Notes: generated by a model not told the origin, from the letters alone. A stretch of 32,000 nt of DNA from an archaeon (GCA_028279805.1 JANQMZ010000007.1:540001-572000), one strand, 5' to 3'. Shown: positions 9,776-32,000, numbered from the stretch's first letter. Program-made: numbers and translations.

Positions 9776-10279
9776 ATGAAAATTTTGATTACCGGTTCTC
9801 CGGGAGTAGGAAAAAGCAATATAGCCAAAGAGCTTGCAAAAAAGCTTAAAATGCCTGTTTTGAATGAAAAAGACTTTGCTTTAAAACAAGGCATAGGCGA
9901 ATGGGATCATGAAGAAAATGAACTGGTTGTACCCCTTGAAAAGCTTGAAAAAGGGCTAAAAAAACACATGAAAGGACAAAAAAATGCCATTTTAGAGGGG
10001 CATTTGTTGTGTGAAATTGGGCTTCCTGTGGATATTGTAATGGTTATAAGGGTTCATCCTGAGCTATTGGAAACAAGGCTTGAGCTGAAAAAGTATTCCC
10101 AGCAAAAAATTTATGATAACGTTTTTTGCGAGGGGATTGATTACTGCAAAAAACATGCTTTCAAAAATTATTCAGAGAAAAAAATTGTTGAAATTAAAAA
10201 CGAGAAAGGAATAAAAGAAGCCCTATCCAGAATATTAAAAGAATTAAGGGGGAGAAAACTAATTGAACAAAAAAATTAG
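9776..10279 (+). CDS. Fap7/AK6-type putative adenylate kinase (ribosome-biogenesis NTPase)
   Basis: 167 aa. P-loop MKILITGSPGVGKSNIAKELAKKL. The size and layout are typical of the archaeal Fap7 homologue. Confidence 0.7.
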   Translation: MKILITGSPGVGKSNIAKELAKKLKMPVLNEKDFALKQGIGEWDHEENELVVPLEKLEKGLKKHMKGQKNAILEGHLLCEIGLPVDIVMVIRVHPELLETRLELKKYSQQKIYDNVFCEGIDYCKKHAFKNYSEKKIVEIKNEKGIKEALSRILKELRGRKLIEQKN

Positions 10280-11540
10280 CTTTCTGTTAATACTGGTATT
10301 TTTATCAGCATTTGTTTTTGCACAAAATAATGAAACAAGCTTTGCCCAGAAAGGATACTCTGACTTTAGTGTGACCGGCGCTAATGAAACAAAATGCACT
10401 GATTTAAAATTTTTAGAACCGGTTAAAGGTTCAAATTTGTATCCCATTCTTTCAGTGGGAATAACATTCGGGCCGGCAACAAAAGGAGACTTAAACATAA
10501 CCACTTTTTTGAATGGTGAAACACTTGAAAGTTTGGATGTTGAAGATTTTTACTGCAACGGGGATTGCTGGAAAAGAATTTTTTTAGAAAAAGAAAAACT
10601 GTTGGAAGAAAATGATTTGAAAGTTTGCATTACAACAAGTGACAGCATTACCAATGTCACTTTTTTAAATAATTCAACAATTGGCTCATATGAAACCCCG
10701 GTTTTAAAACAGGAAAATTTGGAAAAATGTGTTACAAATTTAACGCCTTTAGTTGGAGAAAATGTTAATGCCTGCATGAGAATAACAAACACAGGTTCAA
10801 AGCCTGTTGAAATAGAATTAAGAAATGTGAGGCAGATTGTTGAAGATTTGGATAAACTGATTGACATTCAGTTAATCGGTGAGAGTCTTTTCAAAGGAAC
10901 AATTGAGGCAGGAGAAACAAAAGAAGCCTGGTATAAAGTAAGGCCCAAAAAACCTGTCAAAATTACTCTGCCTCCGGGCGTTTTATATTATGAAAACATT
11001 TTTGGCGAGCCCCAGGTTTTAAAATCAAATCATTTGACCCTGAATGTAAAAGAACCTGAAAAGCCTTTGGAACCATTTATTTTAATCGGAGAAATTGTTA
11101 ATGGAAAATTTGATTTTAAAGTTGCTGTGAAAAACAATACAAAAAATACTTTGTATAATGCTTTGTTTTCATTACAGCCGGATAATGCCTTGAATGTTGA
11201 AGGGGAAAAAATTGTAAGAATTAGTCAAATAGAATCCGGGGAAATAAGAGAGATTAATTTTTCAGGCGAAGCTCTAAACAACGGCTCATTTGATTTGGAT
11301 TGCAGTGTTAAATATCTGGATTATAATCTGGAAGACACAAAATGTAACACGATACAAGTTGTAGTTGAAGACAAGCAAAATTTTATTTTATACGGGGCTA
11401 TTGCACTGGCGATAACTGCAGTACTGGTATACTTATACATAAATTATTCTGCTGCGAGAATAAAACAAAAAGAACTGGAAAAAAAACAGCCAAGAGAAAG
11501 CAAATGGAAATTAAAACAAGAGGAAGAAAAATCAGAATAA
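10263..11540 (+). CDS. surface protein with signal peptide, CARDB-like beta-sandwich modules, C-terminal TM and basic tail
   Basis: 425 aa. A TTG start is preceded by AGGGGGAG and overlaps the Fap7 gene end by 17 nt. Signal: NKKISFLLILVFLSAFVFA|QNN. There are many N-x-S/T sequons. The C-terminal TM (FILYGAIALAITAVLVYLYI) is followed by a K/E tail. Confidence 0.65.
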   Translation: MNKKISFLLILVFLSAFVFAQNNETSFAQKGYSDFSVTGANETKCTDLKFLEPVKGSNLYPILSVGITFGPATKGDLNITTFLNGETLESLDVEDFYCNGDCWKRIFLEKEKLLEENDLKVCITTSDSITNVTFLNNSTIGSYETPVLKQENLEKCVTNLTPLVGENVNACMRITNTGSKPVEIELRNVRQIVEDLDKLIDIQLIGESLFKGTIEAGETKEAWYKVRPKKPVKITLPPGVLYYENIFGEPQVLKSNHLTLNVKEPEKPLEPFILIGEIVNGKFDFKVAVKNNTKNTLYNALFSLQPDNALNVEGEKIVRISQIESGEIREINFSGEALNNGSFDLDCSVKYLDYNLEDTKCNTIQVVVEDKQNFILYGAIALAITAVLVYLYINYSAARIKQKELEKKQPRESKWKLKQEEEKSE

Positions 11541-22365: not shown

Positions 22366-24156
22366 TTATTTTTTGGATTTTTCTTTGTTTTTGGCGGATT
22401 TGAGCTTTTCAACTTCTTTCAGTTCTTTTCTAAGGTTTTTCATTACAAGTTCAAAAGATTCTTTGTTTATTTTGCCTTCAATATGCTGTTTTGTCAAACT
22501 GTTTATTCTTGCAAGAATATCATCTTCAACAAGTTTTAACTGTGACTCCGCTTTGTTTGAAACTTTTTTTGTTTTAAGATGTTTTTTTGATTCTTTTTCA
22601 AATTGTTTCTGTGTTGCCTGTGATTCATTTTCATTGATTTCTTTTTCAGGTTTCTGGGATGTTTGACCTGTTTCAATTTGAATTTTAATTTTTTCAAGAA
22701 AAGATTTCTGGGATAAGACAAGCAATAAAAGCTCGTCAATTTTTGAAACATGGTTTGTTACATTGTACAATTGTTTGTAAGTTTTTTGGCTTTTCTTTTT
22801 AATTTTTTTCAAATCTTTTTCCTGTTTTTTCAAAAAAGATTTTATTATTAAAAGAGTTGCAGTTGTTTTGTCTAATTCCAAAATTTTTTCATTTAATTCC
22901 TCAAAGTCAATGAAAGAATTTGGCTCTGCTGGCACAGGCTGGACAACTTTTTTTGGCGAAGGTTTCGGCAATACTGATAATAATTTATTTCTCTGGGTGA
23001 ACAGAATTATCAGCAAAAATAAGAATAATCCTGCCAGAATCAAGTTTGAATCAAAAGAAAAAGGGGATGATTGTGAAACAATGATGTTTGTTTCAAAAAC
23101 TGATGATTCTTCATTAACATTTATTGTTGCCTTAAGCTTGTAAGTTTTTGGCTCAATGTTCTGCAGGTTAAAAAAAGCTTCAAGTGTTTTTATTTCAAAA
23201 GGATCAAAATTTAGTGCATTGGTGCGGTCAGAAACAATTATTTGGCCTGTTTCAATATCAATCAATTGTACATCTGCTGCAACATTTTCAATTGTTTGAC
23301 CCCACTTGCTTTCAGCTTCAATAAAAACATTGTTTATTGTTCCCGCGGTTAAAAACTCGTTTATTATTTTATTAATTTGAACAGTTTTCAAGCCAATCTG
23401 CAGGTTTTGCAAGGACTCAAGTGTTTGCAAATCATCATATAAAACAAGTATTTTTGCTTTATAATTTCCGGAATCATATTCTGAACCGTTAAAAAAAACT
23501 TCAATTGTTCTTATTTCATCAGGGGTAATTTGTTTTTCCTGGTTTGAAAAAATTGTTTCAAGATATTTATCCTTAAAATCAAAAATGTCAATTTTTGTTT
23601 TAGCATTGTTAATTGTTTCAAGCCCGAGGTTCCAGAAATCCACTGAAAATTTTACCTGTCCTGCGTCAAGAGAATCATTTATTCTTATTGAACGAATCTC
23701 CCCGAATTTTCCCGGAAAAGGTGAAACAACAAAAACCTGAAACAAAGAAACACTTTTTGTTCCGATTCCTTCACCCGGTTTTGTTTGAGGTTCAACTCTT
23801 AGTGTAGCGCGGTGTTTTCCGGATTCAAATTCTTCAGGCATGTTAATAGTGTAAAAAACTTTGATTCTTTCCCTGGGCTTTAACTCAAAACTTTTCACAT
23901 CCAAATTAATGTATTGCCCCAAATCGGAAACATAACCGCTGAAGCCGCCGACACGCTGGTTGGTATCAGGAACAACTGAAACATTAATTGTTCTGGTTTC
24001 ATTGGTTCTTGAAACAATTTCAAAAAAATTTGACTTGGCTTCTCCTGATTCAAAATCAACATAATGCAAACCGGGAGAAATTCCATAATTAAAGGAGAAT
24101 ACATTTAAGGATAAAATTATTAAAAAAATTGCAACAAAAAAAAATTTTTTAAACAA
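22366..24156 (-). CDS. bitopic surface protein: signal peptide, three CARDB/NEW3-like beta-sandwich modules, TM, ~200-aa cytoplasmic K/E coiled coil
   Basis: 596 aa. A TTG start is preceded by AGGGGCGA. The ectodomain includes ..RTINVSVVPD..LKPRERIKVFYTINMPEEFESGKHRATLRVE.. The TM LILAGLFLFLLIILF lies near aa 375. The tail is rich in K, E and Q. Confidence 0.6.
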   Translation of the reverse strand: MFKKFFFVAIFLIILSLNVFSFNYGISPGLHYVDFESGEAKSNFFEIVSRTNETRTINVSVVPDTNQRVGGFSGYVSDLGQYINLDVKSFELKPRERIKVFYTINMPEEFESGKHRATLRVEPQTKPGEGIGTKSVSLFQVFVVSPFPGKFGEIRSIRINDSLDAGQVKFSVDFWNLGLETINNAKTKIDIFDFKDKYLETIFSNQEKQITPDEIRTIEVFFNGSEYDSGNYKAKILVLYDDLQTLESLQNLQIGLKTVQINKIINEFLTAGTINNVFIEAESKWGQTIENVAADVQLIDIETGQIIVSDRTNALNFDPFEIKTLEAFFNLQNIEPKTYKLKATINVNEESSVFETNIIVSQSSPFSFDSNLILAGLFLFLLIILFTQRNKLLSVLPKPSPKKVVQPVPAEPNSFIDFEELNEKILELDKTTATLLIIKSFLKKQEKDLKKIKKKSQKTYKQLYNVTNHVSKIDELLLLVLSQKSFLEKIKIQIETGQTSQKPEKEINENESQATQKQFEKESKKHLKTKKVSNKAESQLKLVEDDILARINSLTKQHIEGKINKESFELVMKNLRKELKEVEKLKSAKNKEKSKK

Positions 24157-26036: not shown

Positions 26037-26447
26037 TTGATTATTATGCCCTTACATCCTTTTGGCGGAAGACGTCCTGTTAATATTGGGGAACGAGCAT
26101 ACAATCCTGCTTTTAAAGGTGTTCCAAAAACAAGCCTGCCTTATTTGAGATTATCAATTGGACGCATAAACAAAGGACTGAAAACCGGAACCGGTGATTA
26201 TCTGAATCATGGCTCACACGGATTATTACAAATAGCAGAAACCTGTGAAAAAGCTGCAAAACATGAAGAGGCAAAAGGAAATGATGCAGAAGCTGCAAAA
26301 TATCAAGAAAAAGCAATAGCCTTGCGTAAAGAAGCAGCTGATTTTCTTATGCAGGCTGGCCGAACTAAAAGAGCGGTTAGTGCCTTGAAAAAAGCCGGAA
26401 TTGAAAACCCTGAAGAATTTCTAAGGCAGGAAGGCTGGAATATTTAA
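26037..26447 (+). CDS. small hypothetical helical protein related to the 18712-19047 product
   Basis: 136 aa from a TTG. ATG at 26046 (MPLHPFGG...) is an equally plausible, possibly leaderless, start. A basic G/P-rich N-terminus is followed by LLQIAETCEKAAKHEEAKGNDAEAAKYQEKAIALRKEAADFL. The gene ends 45 nt upstream of the first pilin gene. Confidence 0.5.
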   Translation: MIIMPLHPFGGRRPVNIGERAYNPAFKGVPKTSLPYLRLSIGRINKGLKTGTGDYLNHGSHGLLQIAETCEKAAKHEEAKGNDAEAAKYQEKAIALRKEAADFLMQAGRTKRAVSALKKAGIENPEEFLRQEGWNI

Positions 26448-26492: not shown

Positions 26493-26900
26493 ATGATTTT
26501 AAACAAAAAAGGGCAGTCATCAGTTGAATACTTAACAACAGTCGGAGTAATTTTAACATTTGTAGCAATTTTGGCGGGTTATGCAACTGTTAATTATGGG
26601 GAATCAACAAAATTTGCACAGGTTAACACTTCCTTGAGTAAGTTAAAAAATTCTGCTGAAAGTGTTTATGCTTTCGGACCCGGGAACAGGGAAAAGGTTA
26701 GAATTGTTTTGCCAACAGGAACAACGGGAAGCAATGTTCAGGGCAACACAATTTCTTTTGATATTGGTTTTATTGGGGGAATCCAAACTGTTGACACTCA
26801 AATTGATGTAAATGTTTCAGGAGTATTGCCTTCAAGTGACGGAATTCATTTTGTTCTGGTTGAAGCAATGGATGGTAATGCAGTTTTTTCAGGTGGTTAA
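26493..26900 (+). CDS. minor pilin-like protein 1 (class III signal peptide, Q+1/E+5)
   Basis: 135 aa. MILNKKG|QSSVEYLTTVGVILTFVAILAGYA is followed by a beta-rich domain. The stop abuts the next ATG (TAAATG). Confidence 0.75.
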   Translation: MILNKKGQSSVEYLTTVGVILTFVAILAGYATVNYGESTKFAQVNTSLSKLKNSAESVYAFGPGNREKVRIVLPTGTTGSNVQGNTISFDIGFIGGIQTVDTQIDVNVSGVLPSSDGIHFVLVEAMDGNAVFSGG

Positions 26901-27257
26901 ATGAAAGGCCAGATAAGCGTTGAAACTTTTTTGGCAGTAGGCGCTTTATTGTTATTTTTTGTAATTGTTTCACTGGCTGCAAACAACCAGAATGTTCAGT
27001 CAACAGTTATTGATGACAGGTTGCAGGAAGAAAATTCCTGCCAGAGAATTGCAAAAATTGCGGCAGCATTATTTTCAACAGACGGGGATGCAAGAATAAC
27101 AACTCATTCAAATCATGATGTTCAGTTTTTGGATAATCTGGTTTTAACATCTAACACTTTTTGCAATTCAACTGCAAAATTAATTGATTCAAATGCTTCA
27201 AAAGGAACAATTGAATTGTTTAAAGATGATTCAGGAGTTGTTGTAAGAAATGCGTGA
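26901..27257 (+). CDS. minor pilin-like protein 2 (class III signal peptide, Q+1/E+5)
   Basis: 118 aa. MKG|QISVETFLAVGALLLFFVIVSLA. It overlaps the next gene by 8 nt (ATGCGTGA). Confidence 0.7.
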   Translation: MKGQISVETFLAVGALLLFFVIVSLAANNQNVQSTVIDDRLQEENSCQRIAKIAAALFSTDGDARITTHSNHDVQFLDNLVLTSNTFCNSTAKLIDSNASKGTIELFKDDSGVVVRNA

Positions 27258-27726
27258 AAAAGGCCAAACGGTTTCATACGATTTGCTTATAGCGGTTTTG
27301 CTGTTTTTGTTATTAATGCAGACAATGCAGTTTTTATGGACTGATTCACTGCAAGGCAATCTGGACCAGCAGGGAATTATTACCATGAGGGAATTGGCTT
27401 CAAATGTTTCTGAAACATTAATCAAAAGCCAGGGTTTTCCAAGAGAATGGAATTCTGCAAATGTTGAAACAATTGGTCTGGCGCAGAGGCCAAGTGTTTT
27501 AAGTGTTGATAAAGTAAGAGAATTCGGATTAATTGACCATAATCAGGCAAGAATTTTACTGGCTTTATCACAGTATGATTTCTTTTTTGAATTAGATTCT
27601 GTTTTGAATGAGTTGGATGTAAACGTTGGCAACGCAGTTCCGGATACAGGCGAATTGGCTGTTGTTTCAAGAAATGTTATTTATGGAGGAGAAAATGCAA
27701 ATGCAAAACTTTACATTTTTGAATAA
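27250..27726 (+). CDS. minor pilin-like protein 3 (class III signal peptide, Q+1, D+6)
   Basis: 158 aa. MREKG|QTVSYDLLIAVLLFLLLMQTMQF. Confidence 0.7.
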   Translation: MREKGQTVSYDLLIAVLLFLLLMQTMQFLWTDSLQGNLDQQGIITMRELASNVSETLIKSQGFPREWNSANVETIGLAQRPSVLSVDKVREFGLIDHNQARILLALSQYDFFFELDSVLNELDVNVGNAVPDTGELAVVSRNVIYGGENANAKLYIFE

Positions 27727-30019
27727 AAAAGGTTTTGTGTTTTTATTTGAATTATTAATAGCAATAGGCTTGGCTACAGCTTTTTTAAATGTTGCAAGTT
27801 TTCAGGAACTGGAAACAGGTGAATTGTTAACAAAAATTCAGGAAAAACAAAGATCAACAGATATTCTGACTACGTTAGACGAAAACGGTTTTTTGCTGCA
27901 AAAACTTGATGAAAATGCTTCAGCGGATGACAAAATGCTGGATATTTATAATGAAATTTTAAGGCAGCTTCCTGAAACGGTTAATGCAAGAATTGAATTG
28001 GATTTTTTTGATGTTGACACAGCGGACTGTAAAACAAATGAATCATTTGAATCATGTTTTAACAAAATTGAAGGAACTTACAATCCGCAAGGTCCTGAGT
28101 TACCAAATGATAAAAGTGTTACAGCTGAAACGCTGATTTTGGTTAAAAAACAGCCACCCCAATTATGTGAAGTTGTTCAGCCTCCGACATTTCAGGAAAA
28201 AGAAACTGAAGAAAGCTTGCTAACCAAAACTCCTTTAAAAATTTATTTTTCTGAAGAAGAAAAAATTGCAAAACCTTTGAAATTATTTTTTTCCCATCAG
28301 GAAGGTCATGATGCAAATGTAATATTTGATTTGAATACGACACCGGAAACTTCATTACAGTGCGGTGAAAATTTAAGATTTGATTTGGGCGCAAAAGTAA
28401 TTGATTTTGGAAGGAATCCTGTGGACATAATGCTTGTGCAGGACCGTTCCGGTTCAATGGATGAATTCACGGTAAACCTGCAGACACTGGCAAGCGGAGC
28501 ATTTAATGATGGCACAAGACAATGCGGTTTTTTGTGCTTGTCCTGCACTCCGACAAACTGGCAAAATTTGGCACAATTTGATTTAACTTCAGGGCAGGAT
28601 TATGCGGTTAAAATGGTTGACCATAACCATTCAGGTGCAAGGCCATGTTTGTTTGCTTCAACACCCCCATATTTGGAACTGGAAAATCCAAGCGGCAGCC
28701 AGCCAACCAATCGTGATACTGAGGTTATTTTAAGAACACCTTTTGTTTCAGGCACGTATACTGCGTGGGGCTGGAGCCAGGAATGGATTGGCTATGATTT
28801 GAATTTGTATGAAAACAAAATGACAGCTTCTCAAAGGGCTGCTAAAAATTTTGTAGATGATGCTGAATGGAAAGACAATGACAGGCTGGGATTAGTTTCA
28901 TTTGCAGGAAGTTCAGATTTAGATGAACAATTACAATTGGCGGACGACCAGAACAAAGAGGATATTAAAGATGCAATTGATGCATTAAATTCAGGCGGTT
29001 CTACAGCCATAGGAGAAGGAATAGATGAAGCAACAGATGAATTATTGGGAACACGGTTTGAAGAAACTCATACAAAGTTTCAGATTGTTTTATCTGACGG
29101 GCAAAACAATTCAGGCACTGACCCTCTGGATGCCGCTCAAAGAGCAGCTGATGAAAACATTGTTATTTACACAATTGCTTTTGGCCAGGACGCAGACCAG
29201 GATACTTTAAGGGAAATAGCTGAAATTACTGACGGAAATTTTTATTATGCTGATGAAGATGAAAATGCTTTGGATGACATTTATGATGTAATTCGTGATG
29301 ACATTGGAAACAGGGCCGGTGGAAAAGACAGCTGGGCTTATGATGCAAATTTAACTGTTCCGGTTAACATGGGAGCAGATGTTATTAGTACGGGAACCGG
29401 CGGAGTTTTACAGGAAAGTGTTGACAGGAATTACATTTTTTATGACATTGGTGACATTAGTCCTTCAAGTCCCTGGAATGATTTTTTTACAATTAATTAT
29501 CCTTGTGACAGGGATTTGACTTGCAGTGTTAAATCAATTCATTTTCCTGAAGAGCCTTTTTATCTGGAATATGATAATCAGGATGGTTCTCCTGGAAATC
29601 CTTTAATCTGGGATGAAAATGCTGATTTGAATTTTGAATATCGTGACTTGACTGTTGACATTTTAAGCGCTAAAATTGTAGCGGCAAAAACCGTGTTTTT
29701 GGATGTAAATGCCATAAATTCCGGGCATTTGAATACAAGTCAGACAACAATGGATTTTTATCTGGATGACCCTGAAACCGGGACTTTTTTGAAACAAACT
29801 GTTGTACCGGCAATGTGTGGACAACTGGGTTCTGGCTGTAGTAATTATTTTACATTGTTTTTGGATGAACTGGTTGAAGAGGAAGGATTTATTTATGTAA
29901 TAATTGACAATGAGGATAATGTTGCTGAATGCCCCGGAAACAATGTTGCTGAAATTTTTTGTTCAACAGGCCCGAAAACACAGTATTTTGTTTTAAAGTT
30001 GTGGACGTGGCCAAAGTGA
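27701..30019 (+). CDS. modular pilin-like adhesin: class III signal peptide + helical/linker region + vWA domain (complete MIDAS, ~115-aa insertion) + CARDB-like C-terminal domain
   Basis: The ORF is open from 27626. I prefer ATG 27701 (GGAGGAG 9 nt upstream), which gives MQNFTFLNKKG|FVFLFELLIAIGLATAFL. MIDAS residues are DRSGS at 28442-28456, GGST at 28994-29005 and SDG around 29093-29101. The vWA tail is IVIYTIAFGQDADQDTLREIAEITDGNFYYA. The CARDB-like region (about 29644-29960) ends in DNEDNVAECPGNNVAE. Confidence 0.8.
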   Translation: MQNFTFLNKKGFVFLFELLIAIGLATAFLNVASFQELETGELLTKIQEKQRSTDILTTLDENGFLLQKLDENASADDKMLDIYNEILRQLPETVNARIELDFFDVDTADCKTNESFESCFNKIEGTYNPQGPELPNDKSVTAETLILVKKQPPQLCEVVQPPTFQEKETEESLLTKTPLKIYFSEEEKIAKPLKLFFSHQEGHDANVIFDLNTTPETSLQCGENLRFDLGAKVIDFGRNPVDIMLVQDRSGSMDEFTVNLQTLASGAFNDGTRQCGFLCLSCTPTNWQNLAQFDLTSGQDYAVKMVDHNHSGARPCLFASTPPYLELENPSGSQPTNRDTEVILRTPFVSGTYTAWGWSQEWIGYDLNLYENKMTASQRAAKNFVDDAEWKDNDRLGLVSFAGSSDLDEQLQLADDQNKEDIKDAIDALNSGGSTAIGEGIDEATDELLGTRFEETHTKFQIVLSDGQNNSGTDPLDAAQRAADENIVIYTIAFGQDADQDTLREIAEITDGNFYYADEDENALDDIYDVIRDDIGNRAGGKDSWAYDANLTVPVNMGADVISTGTGGVLQESVDRNYIFYDIGDISPSSPWNDFFTINYPCDRDLTCSVKSIHFPEEPFYLEYDNQDGSPGNPLIWDENADLNFEYRDLTVDILSAKIVAAKTVFLDVNAINSGHLNTSQTTMDFYLDDPETGTFLKQTVVPAMCGQLGSGCSNYFTLFLDELVEEEGFIYVIIDNEDNVAECPGNNVAEIFCSTGPKTQYFVLKLWTWPK

Positions 30020-30978
30020 ATCAGAAAGGAATAATGTTCAGCTTAATGGTTTTGATTATGATTTTGTCTGTAATTGCTTTACAGGATGTTTTCAGGGAAT
30101 CAAAAATTGCACAGCAAAGAAATCCTGAAAAAACAAGAATTTTTTCGGTTAATGAAAAATATGAAAACATTAACAGGAACATTGTTGACCTGTTTAAAGA
30201 GGATTATTTGAGGGAGGTTAGCCAGAGAAATTTGCCTTTTAATTATTTAATTGACGGAAACAAAATAAAATTTAATCATTCAATTCCGTGGGATAAGGGC
30301 ACAATTGAAAATTATTTTGACACAATTAACACTTACAGAATTTTTATTTCTGATAAAAATTATTCAAATGCTTTTGACGGAATTTTTACACAGGTGGAAA
30401 CTTTGCAGAATAGTGAATGGGGCGGAACAGCAACTGATACACATTTTTTAATTCAGCCATTCTGCACAAATTTTGAAACAGGAGACTTAAACAGGGCAAG
30501 AATAACAGAATCTTTTGCAAGCCAGTGCTTAAATTCTTTTGATGAAAATAAGATGCGCAGGTTTGATGTTGACATTGTTGTAAGGAATTCAAATGAAGAT
30601 TTTAATTCAGTTTTTTGTTCAAACGGCTGTTCTTCTCAAAATTTTAATCCTTCAAATTCAAATCCTTATTACAGGCTTGTAATTGATGACACCAAATGTT
30701 CTTCCAAATGCAATTTAAGCCAGACTGTTTTCAGTAAACATTTTTTGGCTGATGACAATGAAACAATTATTTTGTCCGGAGCAGCGTCAAAACCTTTGAG
30801 AATCAGGTTTATGAACGGCGTATTAGTTCAGAGAAACGGTGATTTTTTTGTAGATTCAAACATTCAGGTTCAGTTTGATCAAAATATTAGTGATTTGTTT
30901 TTTCTGGATTTTAATTTTACTTTAACTGAACCTGATTTTAATATTGTTAAAACAAATAATCCGCAAAAACTGAATTAA
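30016..30978 (+). CDS. large pilin-like protein lacking an acidic residue in the N-terminal helix (cap-type candidate)
   Basis: GTG at 30016 overlaps the upstream TGA (GTGA) and gives (M)NQKG|IMFSLMVLIMILSVIAL. The alternative ATG 30034 would give a plain TM anchor. About 320 aa with 8 Cys. The track start at 29959 lies inside the upstream gene. Confidence 0.6.
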   Translation: MNQKGIMFSLMVLIMILSVIALQDVFRESKIAQQRNPEKTRIFSVNEKYENINRNIVDLFKEDYLREVSQRNLPFNYLIDGNKIKFNHSIPWDKGTIENYFDTINTYRIFISDKNYSNAFDGIFTQVETLQNSEWGGTATDTHFLIQPFCTNFETGDLNRARITESFASQCLNSFDENKMRRFDVDIVVRNSNEDFNSVFCSNGCSSQNFNPSNSNPYYRLVIDDTKCSSKCNLSQTVFSKHFLADDNETIILSGAASKPLRIRFMNGVLVQRNGDFFVDSNIQVQFDQNISDLFFLDFNFTLTEPDFNIVKTNNPQKLN

Positions 30979-31104: not shown

Positions 31105-31533
31105 ATGAACAAAAAAGGACAGTCCGCAATTGAATACCTGATGACATACGGTTGGGCTTTGATTGTAATTGCAATTGTTGTCGGAATTCTGGTGTTTGTA
31201 TTAAGCAACACGTCAGGAGGAGCAACATGCCAGTCAAGAAGCCAGAAAATTATTCTGAAAGAATACGCAGTTGATCCTGATACTGTTGCTTTGGGAATGC
31301 AAAACGCAACAGGTTCTGATATGACCAGTATAACCTACGCAGGAGCCGGTGACTTTGGAGGAACAGGTTCAACAGCAGGAACAATTACAAGCGGAAGCGA
31401 GTTTACTGTAACAACCAATAACTTGACCGGGCCGGGTGCCGGTGAGTTTACAGACGGTGTTGTAACAATAACCTATAGTACAAGTTTGTTAACAAATCAA
31501 GACGTTAACATTGTTTGCAGCGGATCACTTTAA
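31105..31533 (+). CDS. major type IV pilin candidate (class III signal peptide, Q+1/E+5)
   Basis: 142 aa. MNKKG|QSAIEYLMTYGWALIVIAIVVGILVFVL. The globular part is Gly/Thr/Ser-rich. There are three sequons (NTS, NAT, NLT) and two Cys (C42, C138). It has its own promoter, a strong SD and a terminator. Confidence 0.8.
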   Translation: MNKKGQSAIEYLMTYGWALIVIAIVVGILVFVLSNTSGGATCQSRSQKIILKEYAVDPDTVALGMQNATGSDMTSITYAGAGDFGGTGSTAGTITSGSEFTVTTNNLTGPGAGEFTDGVVTITYSTSLLTNQDVNIVCSGSL

Positions 31534-31570
31534 GTGAATTAATCCGCTCTTTTTCTTTTTTTTATTTTTT
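31520..31570 (+). terminator. imperfect hairpin (GCGGAT...ATCCGC) followed by T4, T8 and T7 tracts
   Basis: The stem pairs 31520-31525 with 31542-31547 and spans the pilin stop. Oligo-T runs lie at 31551-31571 (archaeal oligo-T termination signal). Confidence 0.5.
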
Positions 31571-32000
31571 TATAACAAGCCTGAGGCAACTCCGCCTAAT
31601 GCCTGTCCCATTAATAATCTGATTCCGAAAAAAACAACAAAAGCAATAACCAGCATTACCGGAATATATTTTACTCCGTCAAGCTCTTTTCCGGAATTGA
31701 TTACTCCTAAAACAAGTGAAGAAAAAATAACAGTAACAATTAATGCAATTTGAGCAAAAAACAAAATAAATGCAGGTTCAATTGCACTTGCCGGGGTTCC
31801 CACCAAGCCTGTTACGCCAATTGCGCTTCCTGAAGCACGTGAAGTGAAATCCTGAGGCAAACTGATATCCTGTGTCTGTTCTGTTATTGATTCAACAATA
31901 ATTGTTGACAATCCTAACAATGCGGGCGCGCCTATGGCTGCAGCAAAAAAAATCATTAAAACATACAGTGAAACGTTTGCATGAATTTCATGTCTAAGCT
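31570..32000 (-). CDS. C-terminal part of a polytopic membrane protein, FlaJ/TadC/PilC-like pilus platform candidate (gene runs off the right edge)
   Basis: The track gives 128 aa from M at 31956, but the frame stays open to 32000 (..LRHEIHANVSLYVLMIFFAAAIG..). There are at least 3 TM helices separated by a loop. It is convergent with the major pilin. The family call rests mainly on context. Confidence 0.45.
   Translation of the reverse strand, partial: LRHEIHANVSLYVLMIFFAAAIGAPALLGLSTIIVESITEQTQDISLPQDFTSRASGSAIGVTGLVGTPASAIEPAFILFFAQIALIVTVIFSSLVLGVINSGKELDGVKYIPVMLVIAFVVFFGIRLLMGQALGGVASGLL

Follow-up and report, generated by a model that had tools for sequence, protein, structure and literature searches.

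Pilins that carry a domain of the von Willebrand factor A (vWA) type are established in bacteria, where PilB and CpaL/TadG combine the two modules in one chain. CpaL has been modelled at the tip of the Tad pilus and donates a C-terminal strand; normal piliation and surface sensing depend on it (PMC12607857, PMC13533445). Two single-domain platform genes are a hallmark of Tad pili and of Epd-like filaments alike, and bacterial Tad pili are thought to descend from archaeal Epd-like systems (PMC6668835; 10.64898/2026.04.22.720090). In DPANN archaea pilus islands have been noted only generically (PMC6393860); the Epd-like "system 1" is reported in some of these organisms by a 2026 survey of archaeal type IV filaments that nowhere mentions a vWA domain (10.64898/2026.04.22.720090). 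A 2016 census took the vWA proteins at archaeal type IV pilus loci to be ArnB-type regulators and mentioned TadG for bacteria only (PMC4858521), and the published census of modular pilins is confined to bacteria (PMC8179133). No archaeal pilin-vWA fusion is described in the literature searched. The present analysis concerns a candidate for such a fusion, a protein of 772 amino acids (aa) encoded at positions 27701-30019 of a 32,000-nucleotide (nt) stretch of archaeal DNA (GCA_028279805.1, JANQMZ010000007.1:540001-572000; here called the window). Its vWA domain is split by an inserted beta-sandwich, and with a probability of roughly 0.6 the protein is a modular minor pilin in the tip complex of an Epd-like pilus of a DPANN archaeon, acting as a metal-dependent adhesin whose insert sets the specificity.

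The vWA domain is non-contiguous, being interrupted directly after the DxSxS motif of its MIDAS (metal-ion-dependent adhesion site), a feature overlooked in the initial annotation of the window. The native Pfam VWA match (E=1.1e-25, far beyond chance) is restricted to aa 373-529, which correspond to profile positions 16-173 of 174, and the DxSxS motif lies about 120 residues upstream of it. When aa 235-256 are joined in silico to aa 370-545 the match covers profile positions 1-173 of 174 and rises from 91.3 to 104.1 bits (E=1.3e-29). Because the profile match becomes full-length once the insert is deleted, the domain is evidently split by these 115 residues. The initial annotation had described a vWA domain with all MIDAS elements, and the profile match together with the residues themselves bears this out: DRSGS (aa 248-252, 28442-28456), GGST (aa 432-435, 28994-29005) and SDG (aa 465-467, 29093-29101) supply the five positions D248, S250, S252, T435 and D466.

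The same anatomy appears in the structural comparisons. A full-length AlphaFold2 model, built on an 18-sequence family alignment (mean predicted local distance difference test (pLDDT) 79.6, predicted template modelling score (pTM) 0.44), has a strand at aa 241-248, an all-beta stretch at aa 258-371 and then alternating helices and strands at aa 373-539, with a pLDDT of about 90 or above at the MIDAS loops. By sequence the vWA region matches the PDB entries 4cn8, 4rck and 3ibs, and Foldseek alignments to vWA domains of about 200 aa span about 305-314 columns, consistent with bridging of the insert. In the vWA fold the beta1-alpha1 loop, which contains DxSxS, belongs to the face that binds the metal. 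The insert has both its ends in this loop, and they are thus tethered to the MIDAS face.

Modelled alone from 27 aligned units, the insert folds as a nine-strand sandwich (pLDDT 89.4, pTM 0.82). It has no match in Pfam or NCBIfam, and its profile reaches only chance level against PDB sequences (a CBM61 module at E=0.09). Foldseek finds nothing below 1e-3 for the model; the best match is PliG (E=3.8e-3), and there are weak matches to jelly-roll, CBM, PPC and GOLD folds. A PPC or collagen-binding domain, expected from the sequence pattern, was dropped as an identification, the collagen-binding domain of ColG and the jelly-roll of Tk-SP being weak matches in Foldseek.

An exhaustive search of 1.84 billion representative proteins yields 88 relatives at E<=1e-30, and an identical 772-aa protein is already on record, encoded on an 853-kb contig. 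A word-indexed homologue search with the family alignment returned only the target and one relative, P0002, as generic vWA words dominated the candidates. In the 60 family representatives that have the two halves of the vWA domain, beta1 and alpha1 are separated by 9 to 1569 aa. Four members have a gap of 9-20 aa and no insert. Gaps of about 116-160 aa hold one sandwich unit, which is the class of the target, and those of about 233-244 aa hold two; about 294-306 aa correspond to an LVIVD propeller, about 437-500 aa to a propeller with a DUF4082-like domain, and the longest, up to 1569 aa, to seven sandwich units with two domains of the ConA-like lectin type, Laminin_G_3. The assignments to LVIVD, DUF4082 and Laminin_G_3 are borne out by Pfam, and the inserts otherwise consist of one to seven sandwich copies. 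The VWA match begins near profile position 16 in each insert-bearing relative tested against Pfam, and in P0018, P0020, P0029, P0096 and P0062 the LVIVD, DUF4082-like and/or Laminin_G_3 domains are nested within the vWA domain. All five MIDAS positions are intact in 52 of the 60 representatives. A rough neighbour-joining tree, drawn from the conserved core without support values, has the insert classes interleaved, which suggests repeated replacement of the module. The pairing of a propeller with a MIDAS-bearing vWA domain recalls PilY1 and the integrin head, here in one chain and with the nesting order reversed.

The class III-type N-terminus named in the initial annotation is seen in the target sequence as MQNFTFLNKKG^FVFLFELLIAIGLATAFLNVASF (^ marks the predicted cleavage site), a short basic leader ending in Gly and followed by a hydrophobic run. 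The pattern is kept across the family with the consensus [KR][GA]^F.F.(L/A)(E/D), in which Phe stands at +1 and the acidic residue at +6. The next part had been described as a helical/linker region of about 230 aa. Instead, the AlphaFold2 prediction has a helix spanning aa 9-61, a further two helices with four strands reaching to aa 159 (pLDDT about 75-92 over aa 41-150), then a disordered linker of 44 aa and beta strands at aa 207-233. The predicted helix-plus-head layout is that of a pilin. Cysteines 110, 119, 156 and 221 of this N-terminal part belong to the eight that are invariant in the whole protein.

Two beta domains follow the vWA domain. The first has no Pfam or NCBIfam match (aa 541-649 searched). 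For the second, a CARDB-like module had been proposed, and this holds in part. A profile of 22 family members matches PDB 3idu (E=7.5e-4), 2kut and 2kl6 (E up to 0.02) over the same stretch, ending at ECPGNN; the search output lists all three as uncharacterised, and we take at least 3idu and 2kl6 to be CARDB-domain structures. The Pfam score, however, is sub-threshold, with PF07705 at 15.8 bits for the whole protein (E=0.017) and 18.5-20.4 bits for excised C-terminal fragments against a cut-off of 22.7; a CARDB match at E<=0.01 is found in 5 of 22 family members. The CARDB-like motif DNEDNVAECPGNNVAE (aa 736-751, 29906-29953), which closes the module in the initial annotation, is not the end of the protein. 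The CARDB-like match stops at aa 748, and a conserved terminal hairpin (strands 749-755 and 760-771) comes after it, its last 12 residues forming a conserved strand. The extreme C-terminus, KTQYFVLKLWTWPK (ending LWTWPK), has no LPXTG sorting signal.

Over the whole chain, the top PDB matches in Foldseek are SpaC, PitA, RrgA and Mfa5 (E 1e-14 to 1e-11, about 600-690 columns), and S. sanguinis PilB aligns collinearly over 571 columns (E=3.3e-8). These matches to pilus tip adhesins support the adhesin analogy, and the comparison with PilB and PilY1 drawn in the initial annotation was apt. Its general description, a pilin-type N-terminus joined to a vWA domain with complete MIDAS and a CARDB-like module, is upheld by profile and structure comparison.

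The open reading frame (ORF) and motif coordinates of the initial annotation proved exact. A GGAGGAG Shine-Dalgarno-like motif lies 9 nt 5' of the ATG at 27701, the start used in the gene call of locus L047, which comes from the genome of the window; an alternative longer frame would start with TTG at 27626. The last 26 nt of the preceding gene, pil158, overlap the target gene, and the target's TGA stop overlaps the start codon of the following gene, p320. Class-III-type N-termini are found on six consecutive ORFs, the target and five neighbours (Table 1). Their consensus is [KR]G^Q..xE in pil135, pil118 and pil142 ([KR][GA]^QV.xEY among the homologues of pil135) and [KR]G^Q....D in pil158. 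By hhalign pil135 is tied to pil142 and pil118 with 95-96% probability. In p320 the consensus is [KR]G^(V/L/I)(L/F)FT and the acidic residue is consistently missing. As far as is known, GspK-type apical pilins also lack this residue, which makes p320 a candidate cap and, by analogy with GspK/PilK, the candidate for the apical position in the tip complex.

Species-representative genomes, scanned with a 6-sequence alignment, contain 21 loci with a relative that bears the conserved C-terminal module. Their named lineages are Candidatus Diapherotrites, Iainarchaeum and Micrarchaeota metagenome-assembled genomes (MAGs), the remainder being labelled uncultured archaeon. The order is pil135, pil118, pil158, vWA-pilin and p320, then a variable gene, the ATPase, two platform genes and often pil142, with the vWA gene in fourth place and shorter contigs holding the matching part. 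A p320 homologue lies directly 3' of the vWA gene in every locus reaching that far. In the gene table of L047, the minus strand beyond the window carries a second T2SSF gene, a T2SSE ATPase gene (PF00437) and a 429-aa gene. The two platform proteins, of 294 and 337 aa, have one PF00482 match each and are encoded beside the ATPase.

Table 1. Features of the target gene and its neighbours, in window coordinates (^, predicted cleavage site)
Feature	Position	Strand	Description
pil135	26493..26900	+	Minor-pilin-like; MILNKKG^QSSVEY, Q at +1, E at +5; homologues at the same operon position
pil118	26901..27257	+	Minor-pilin-like; MKG^QISVET
pil158	27250..27726	+	Minor-pilin-like; MREKG^QTVSYD, acidic residue at +6
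Target vWA pilin-like gene	27701..30019	+	772-aa modular ORF; same extent in the gene table of L047
Class-III-type signal	27701..27802	+	Leader aa 1-11 ending KKG, hydrophobic aa 12-34, E17 at +6; direct reading
Predicted pilin-like module	27734..28177	+	Helix to aa 61, alpha/beta head, invariant C110, C119, C156; AlphaFold2
Disordered linker	28178..28309	+	aa 160-203, rich in E/K/T/P; pLDDT 32-34; aligns poorly with P0002
vWA part 1	28412..28468	+	Strand beta1 and MIDAS loop 1, DIMLVQDRSGSMDEF; AlphaFold2 strand 241-248, pLDDT 94
Inserted beta-sandwich	28469..28813	+	aa 257-371, 115 aa, nested in the vWA beta1-alpha1 loop at Pfam position 15/16
vWA part 2	28814..29320	+	Helix alpha1 to last helix, with T435 and D466; PF00092 E=1.1e-25
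Beta domain without family	29336..29638	+	aa 546-646, invariant C602 and C608; AlphaFold2 strands, conserved across the family
CARDB-like beta-sandwich	29645..29965	+	aa 649-755, ECPGNN motif; PF07705 below cut-off
Extreme C-terminal strand	29978..30013	+	aa 760-771, TQYFVLKLWTWP, W770 invariant; AlphaFold2 strand and family alignment
p320	30016..30978	+	Pilin-like; (V)NQKG^IMFSLMVL without acidic residue; GTG start
pil142	31105..31533	+	Candidate major pilin; MNKKG^QSAIEYLMTYGWALIVIAIVVG; best-conserved N-terminus of the set
T2SSF platform gene, 3' part	31570..32000	-	Runs off the window; PF00482

The following mechanism can be proposed. A class III signal peptidase would remove the 11-residue leader after Gly11. 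To judge by the genes present and by the tip complexes of bacteria, the hydrophobic N-terminal helix would join a tip or priming complex with the products of pil135, pil118, pil158 and p320. The pil142 product would then polymerise beneath this complex, with the neighbouring ATPase and the split platform as the drive. The remaining residues, about 600, would project from the filament tip on the flexible linker, presenting a vWA domain with complete MIDAS, a sandwich that the MIDAS loop encloses and a stalk made up of two beta domains. As both of its ends are in the beta1-alpha1 loop, the insert would sit on the MIDAS face, which leads to the proposal that the metal site and the inserted module jointly form the surface for a putative ligand, with the insert giving specificity. 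Specificity set by the insert would explain why the MIDAS is kept while the insert is exchanged for propellers or lectins. A more tentative extension, which we regard as conceivable rather than probable, is that the Epd-like pilus of DPANN archaea bears a single-chain "integrin-like" head whose beta1-alpha1 loop docks swappable modules of the jelly-roll, LVIVD-propeller or ConA-like lectin type, so that the tip could be retargeted to new partners or surfaces.

Several observations weigh against a tip adhesin of this kind. At E<=0.1, whole proteins have no N_methyl, Class_IIIsignal, Pilin_N or arch_flag_Nterm match in Pfam or NCBIfam, and no pilin profile is found even at E<=10 for the first 240 aa of the target or the first 60 aa of its five neighbours. 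Comparison of the N-terminal module with the five neighbouring pilin families by hhalign is not significant (probability <=20%). The conserved acidic residue of the target is at +6 and not at the canonical +5, where pil135, pil118 and pil142 have Glu, and Phe occupies +1 where the other operon pilins have Gln; the +5 Glu is, as far as known, not universal among archaeal pilins. A motif and hydrophobicity screen found no prepilin peptidase or A24-like gene in the window or in loci L001-L024. The pTM of 0.44 for the full-length model makes the arrangement of the domains, including the placing of the insert beside the MIDAS, uncertain. The insert has no confident structural relative, so that a binding role for it is argued by analogy, and in CpaL the beta-rich insert is reported to project away from the MIDAS. 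Finally, the four insert-free relatives P0064, P0071, P0082 and P0102 (gap 9-20 aa) have a degenerate MIDAS (DS-ND or DS-GD); their Pfam VWA scores are weak and their MIDAS positions poorly aligned.

The target could be primarily a subunit that licenses assembly or senses mechanical force, like CpaL/TadG or GspK/PilK, and nucleates the tip complex; its C-terminal strand might be added to a pilin sheet and its vWA domain serve as a force sensor or structural spacer. This is rather unlikely as the main role, even though CpaL has the same overall design, acts in piliation and surface sensing and donates a strand (PMC12607857, PMC13533445), the extreme C-terminus with its invariant W770 and 12-residue strand is among the best-conserved parts of the protein, and the vWA gene has a fixed place among minor pilins in the 21 loci. 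A structural role alone leaves both the conservation of the MIDAS (52 of 60) and the rapid exchange of modules unexplained, and adhesion and assembly are mutually compatible. A more distinctly improbable reading makes the protein a cell-surface adhesin on an uncleaved signal-anchor helix, co-expressed with the pilus and standing outside the filament. The lack of a pilin profile match, the +1 Phe and +6 Glu that are atypical beside the Gln+1/Glu+5 pilins of the operon, and the lack of a peptidase gene in the loci screened all agree with it, as does older literature, as cited in PMC4858521, in which TadG anchors the pilus to the membrane. A plain anchor, however, needs neither the [KR][GA] motif nor an acidic residue at a fixed distance from it, and both are kept in more than 40 representatives. 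The predicted helix-plus-head moreover resembles pilins, the protein aligns collinearly with PilB, and the gene lies among those for minor pilins, coupled in translation to the gene on either side.

It is very improbable that the protein is secreted, as cargo of the machine or as a factor that interacts with the S-layer or breaches the envelope. Some adhesin-like proteins in such loci have been suggested to prepare the cell wall for the passing filament (10.64898/2026.04.22.720090), and other signal-like N-termini are encoded nearby in the window, but nothing points to a release of the protein; its pilin-type N-terminus and its fixed place in the operon favour incorporation into a filament, and the best structural matches are pilus tip adhesins. 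The view of pilus-locus vWA proteins as regulators (PMC4858521) would make the target a cytoplasmic, ArnB-like regulator of filament expression, and ArnB and VWA2 structures (8s05, 5a8j) are indeed among the fold matches. This reading has next to no chance of being correct and is rejected, since it is contradicted by the N-terminal signal, the hydrophobic helix, the eight invariant cysteines and the CARDB-like stalk; the locus encodes neither an FHA partner nor a MoxR ATPase. A modular minor pilin with a metal-dependent adhesive head thus remains the preferred reading.

The family offers a concrete and testable candidate for a recognition molecule of DPANN archaea, whose cell-cell and surface recognition is poorly understood. 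Its most interesting element is the swappable module at the MIDAS loop: a variable module beside a conserved metal site amounts to a natural experiment on the evolution of specificity and might help to predict partners from metagenomes. In addition, the family provides a data point on the archaeal ancestor of bacterial Tad pili.

The loci vary in several further respects. In L047 (13870-18575) the block of platform, ATPase and 429-aa genes is inverted and converges on the pilin operon; the other loci with a platform/ATPase block have it co-directional, placed between p320 and pil142. Two Iainarchaeum MAGs have a second vWA-pilin paralogue in tandem, directly after the first (L006 10208-12406, L007 10205-12598); the copy in L006, the only one scanned, has a much weaker vWA match (PF00092 E=1e-5). 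In L015-L021 (e.g., L016 4758-6359) the pil118 homologue is about 530 aa long compared with about 120 aa, and the vWA pilin of this clade has an insert of about 800-960 aa. The enlarged homologue, which has no Pfam match, would be a second modular pilin in the operon. The gene 5' of the ATPase (p429; L047 17286-18575) encodes 135-751 aa across loci, with a lysine-rich N-terminus in the window's copy and several others, and its copy at L005 13266-15287 has a C-terminal winged-helix HTH_24 domain that hints at a regulator. On the contig of P0002 two KaiC/RecA-like ATPase genes lie shortly 3' of the pilus locus (L001 13999-15328), in agreement with published work that associates KaiC-family ATPases with archaeal type IV pilus loci.

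Elsewhere in the window, the genes include those for FttA, a proteasome subunit, FKBP26, PGK and glutamine synthetase; the gene content is archaeal and the GC content about 33%. Scans of the window for Rfam families and for tRNAs gave no hits. Directly 5' of the pilin operon (26046-26447, + strand) lies the gene for a small protein that has weak TPR-like matches and no signal-like N-terminus. Two ORFs of 596 aa (22366-24156, - strand) and 425 aa (10263-11540, + strand) each have an N-terminal signal, a beta-rich ectodomain, a single C-terminal transmembrane segment and a tail rich in lysine; both are without a match in Pfam and NCBIfam, and they may be surface proteins.

Among described systems, the sortase-pilus tip adhesins SpaC, RrgA and PitA and the type V pilus tip protein Mfa5, found by fold comparison, share a vWA head on a beta-sandwich stalk with the target. 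The resemblance is in fold only: their assembly pathways are unrelated, and the "arms" of their vWA domains are short and not whole domains. PilY1/PilC likewise places a vWA domain at the pilus tip together with a set of minor pilins, and the relatives with an LVIVD insert pair vWA with a beta-propeller as it does. PilY1, in contrast, does not belong to the pilins, and it bears a propeller of a different family at its C-terminus; the target has no PilY1 or Neisseria_PilC domain match in Pfam. PilB (7b7p; PMC8179133) is closer, as it joins a pilin module to a MIDAS vWA adhesion module and belongs to a tip complex of minor pilins. It differs in that its class III motif is the canonical one of bacteria (IPR012902), its linker is short and its vWA domain contiguous, and it has neither a nested domain nor a CARDB-like stalk.

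The operon layout, as read from the gene arrangement, is Epd-like (archaeal "system 1"). The Epd system of Methanococcus maripaludis and other type IV filament loci of system 1 share with it the two single-domain platform genes beside the ATPase and several Gln+1 pilins, whereas the target loci (the window and L001-L024) have no gene for an EppA-type peptidase.

The closest bacterial counterpart of the target is CpaL/TadG rather than PilB, a relationship missed in the initial annotation. In both, a signal and a pilin-like module precede a single vWA domain that is split by a beta-rich insert (PMC12607857, PMC13533445), the MIDAS is canonical, and SpaC, RrgA, Mfa5 and PilB are the top structural analogues. 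The gene of each also occurs together with those for further minor pilins, an ATPase and a pair of single-domain platform proteins. The target itself has no Pfam Tad (PF13400) or NCBIfam TadG match, and the two designs differ in detail. In CpaL the first vWA segment continues for about 39 residues past DxTxS and the insert consists of two tandem beta-barrels, whereas the insert of the target starts right after DxSxS and is a single sandwich, replaced by other modules in its relatives. The target adds two C-terminal beta domains and belongs to an archaeal host without a secretin. Given this common design and the presumed origin of Tad pili from Epd-like systems of Archaea, the archaeal ancestor may already have possessed a vWA tip pilin; alternatively, Archaea and Bacteria may have exchanged one.

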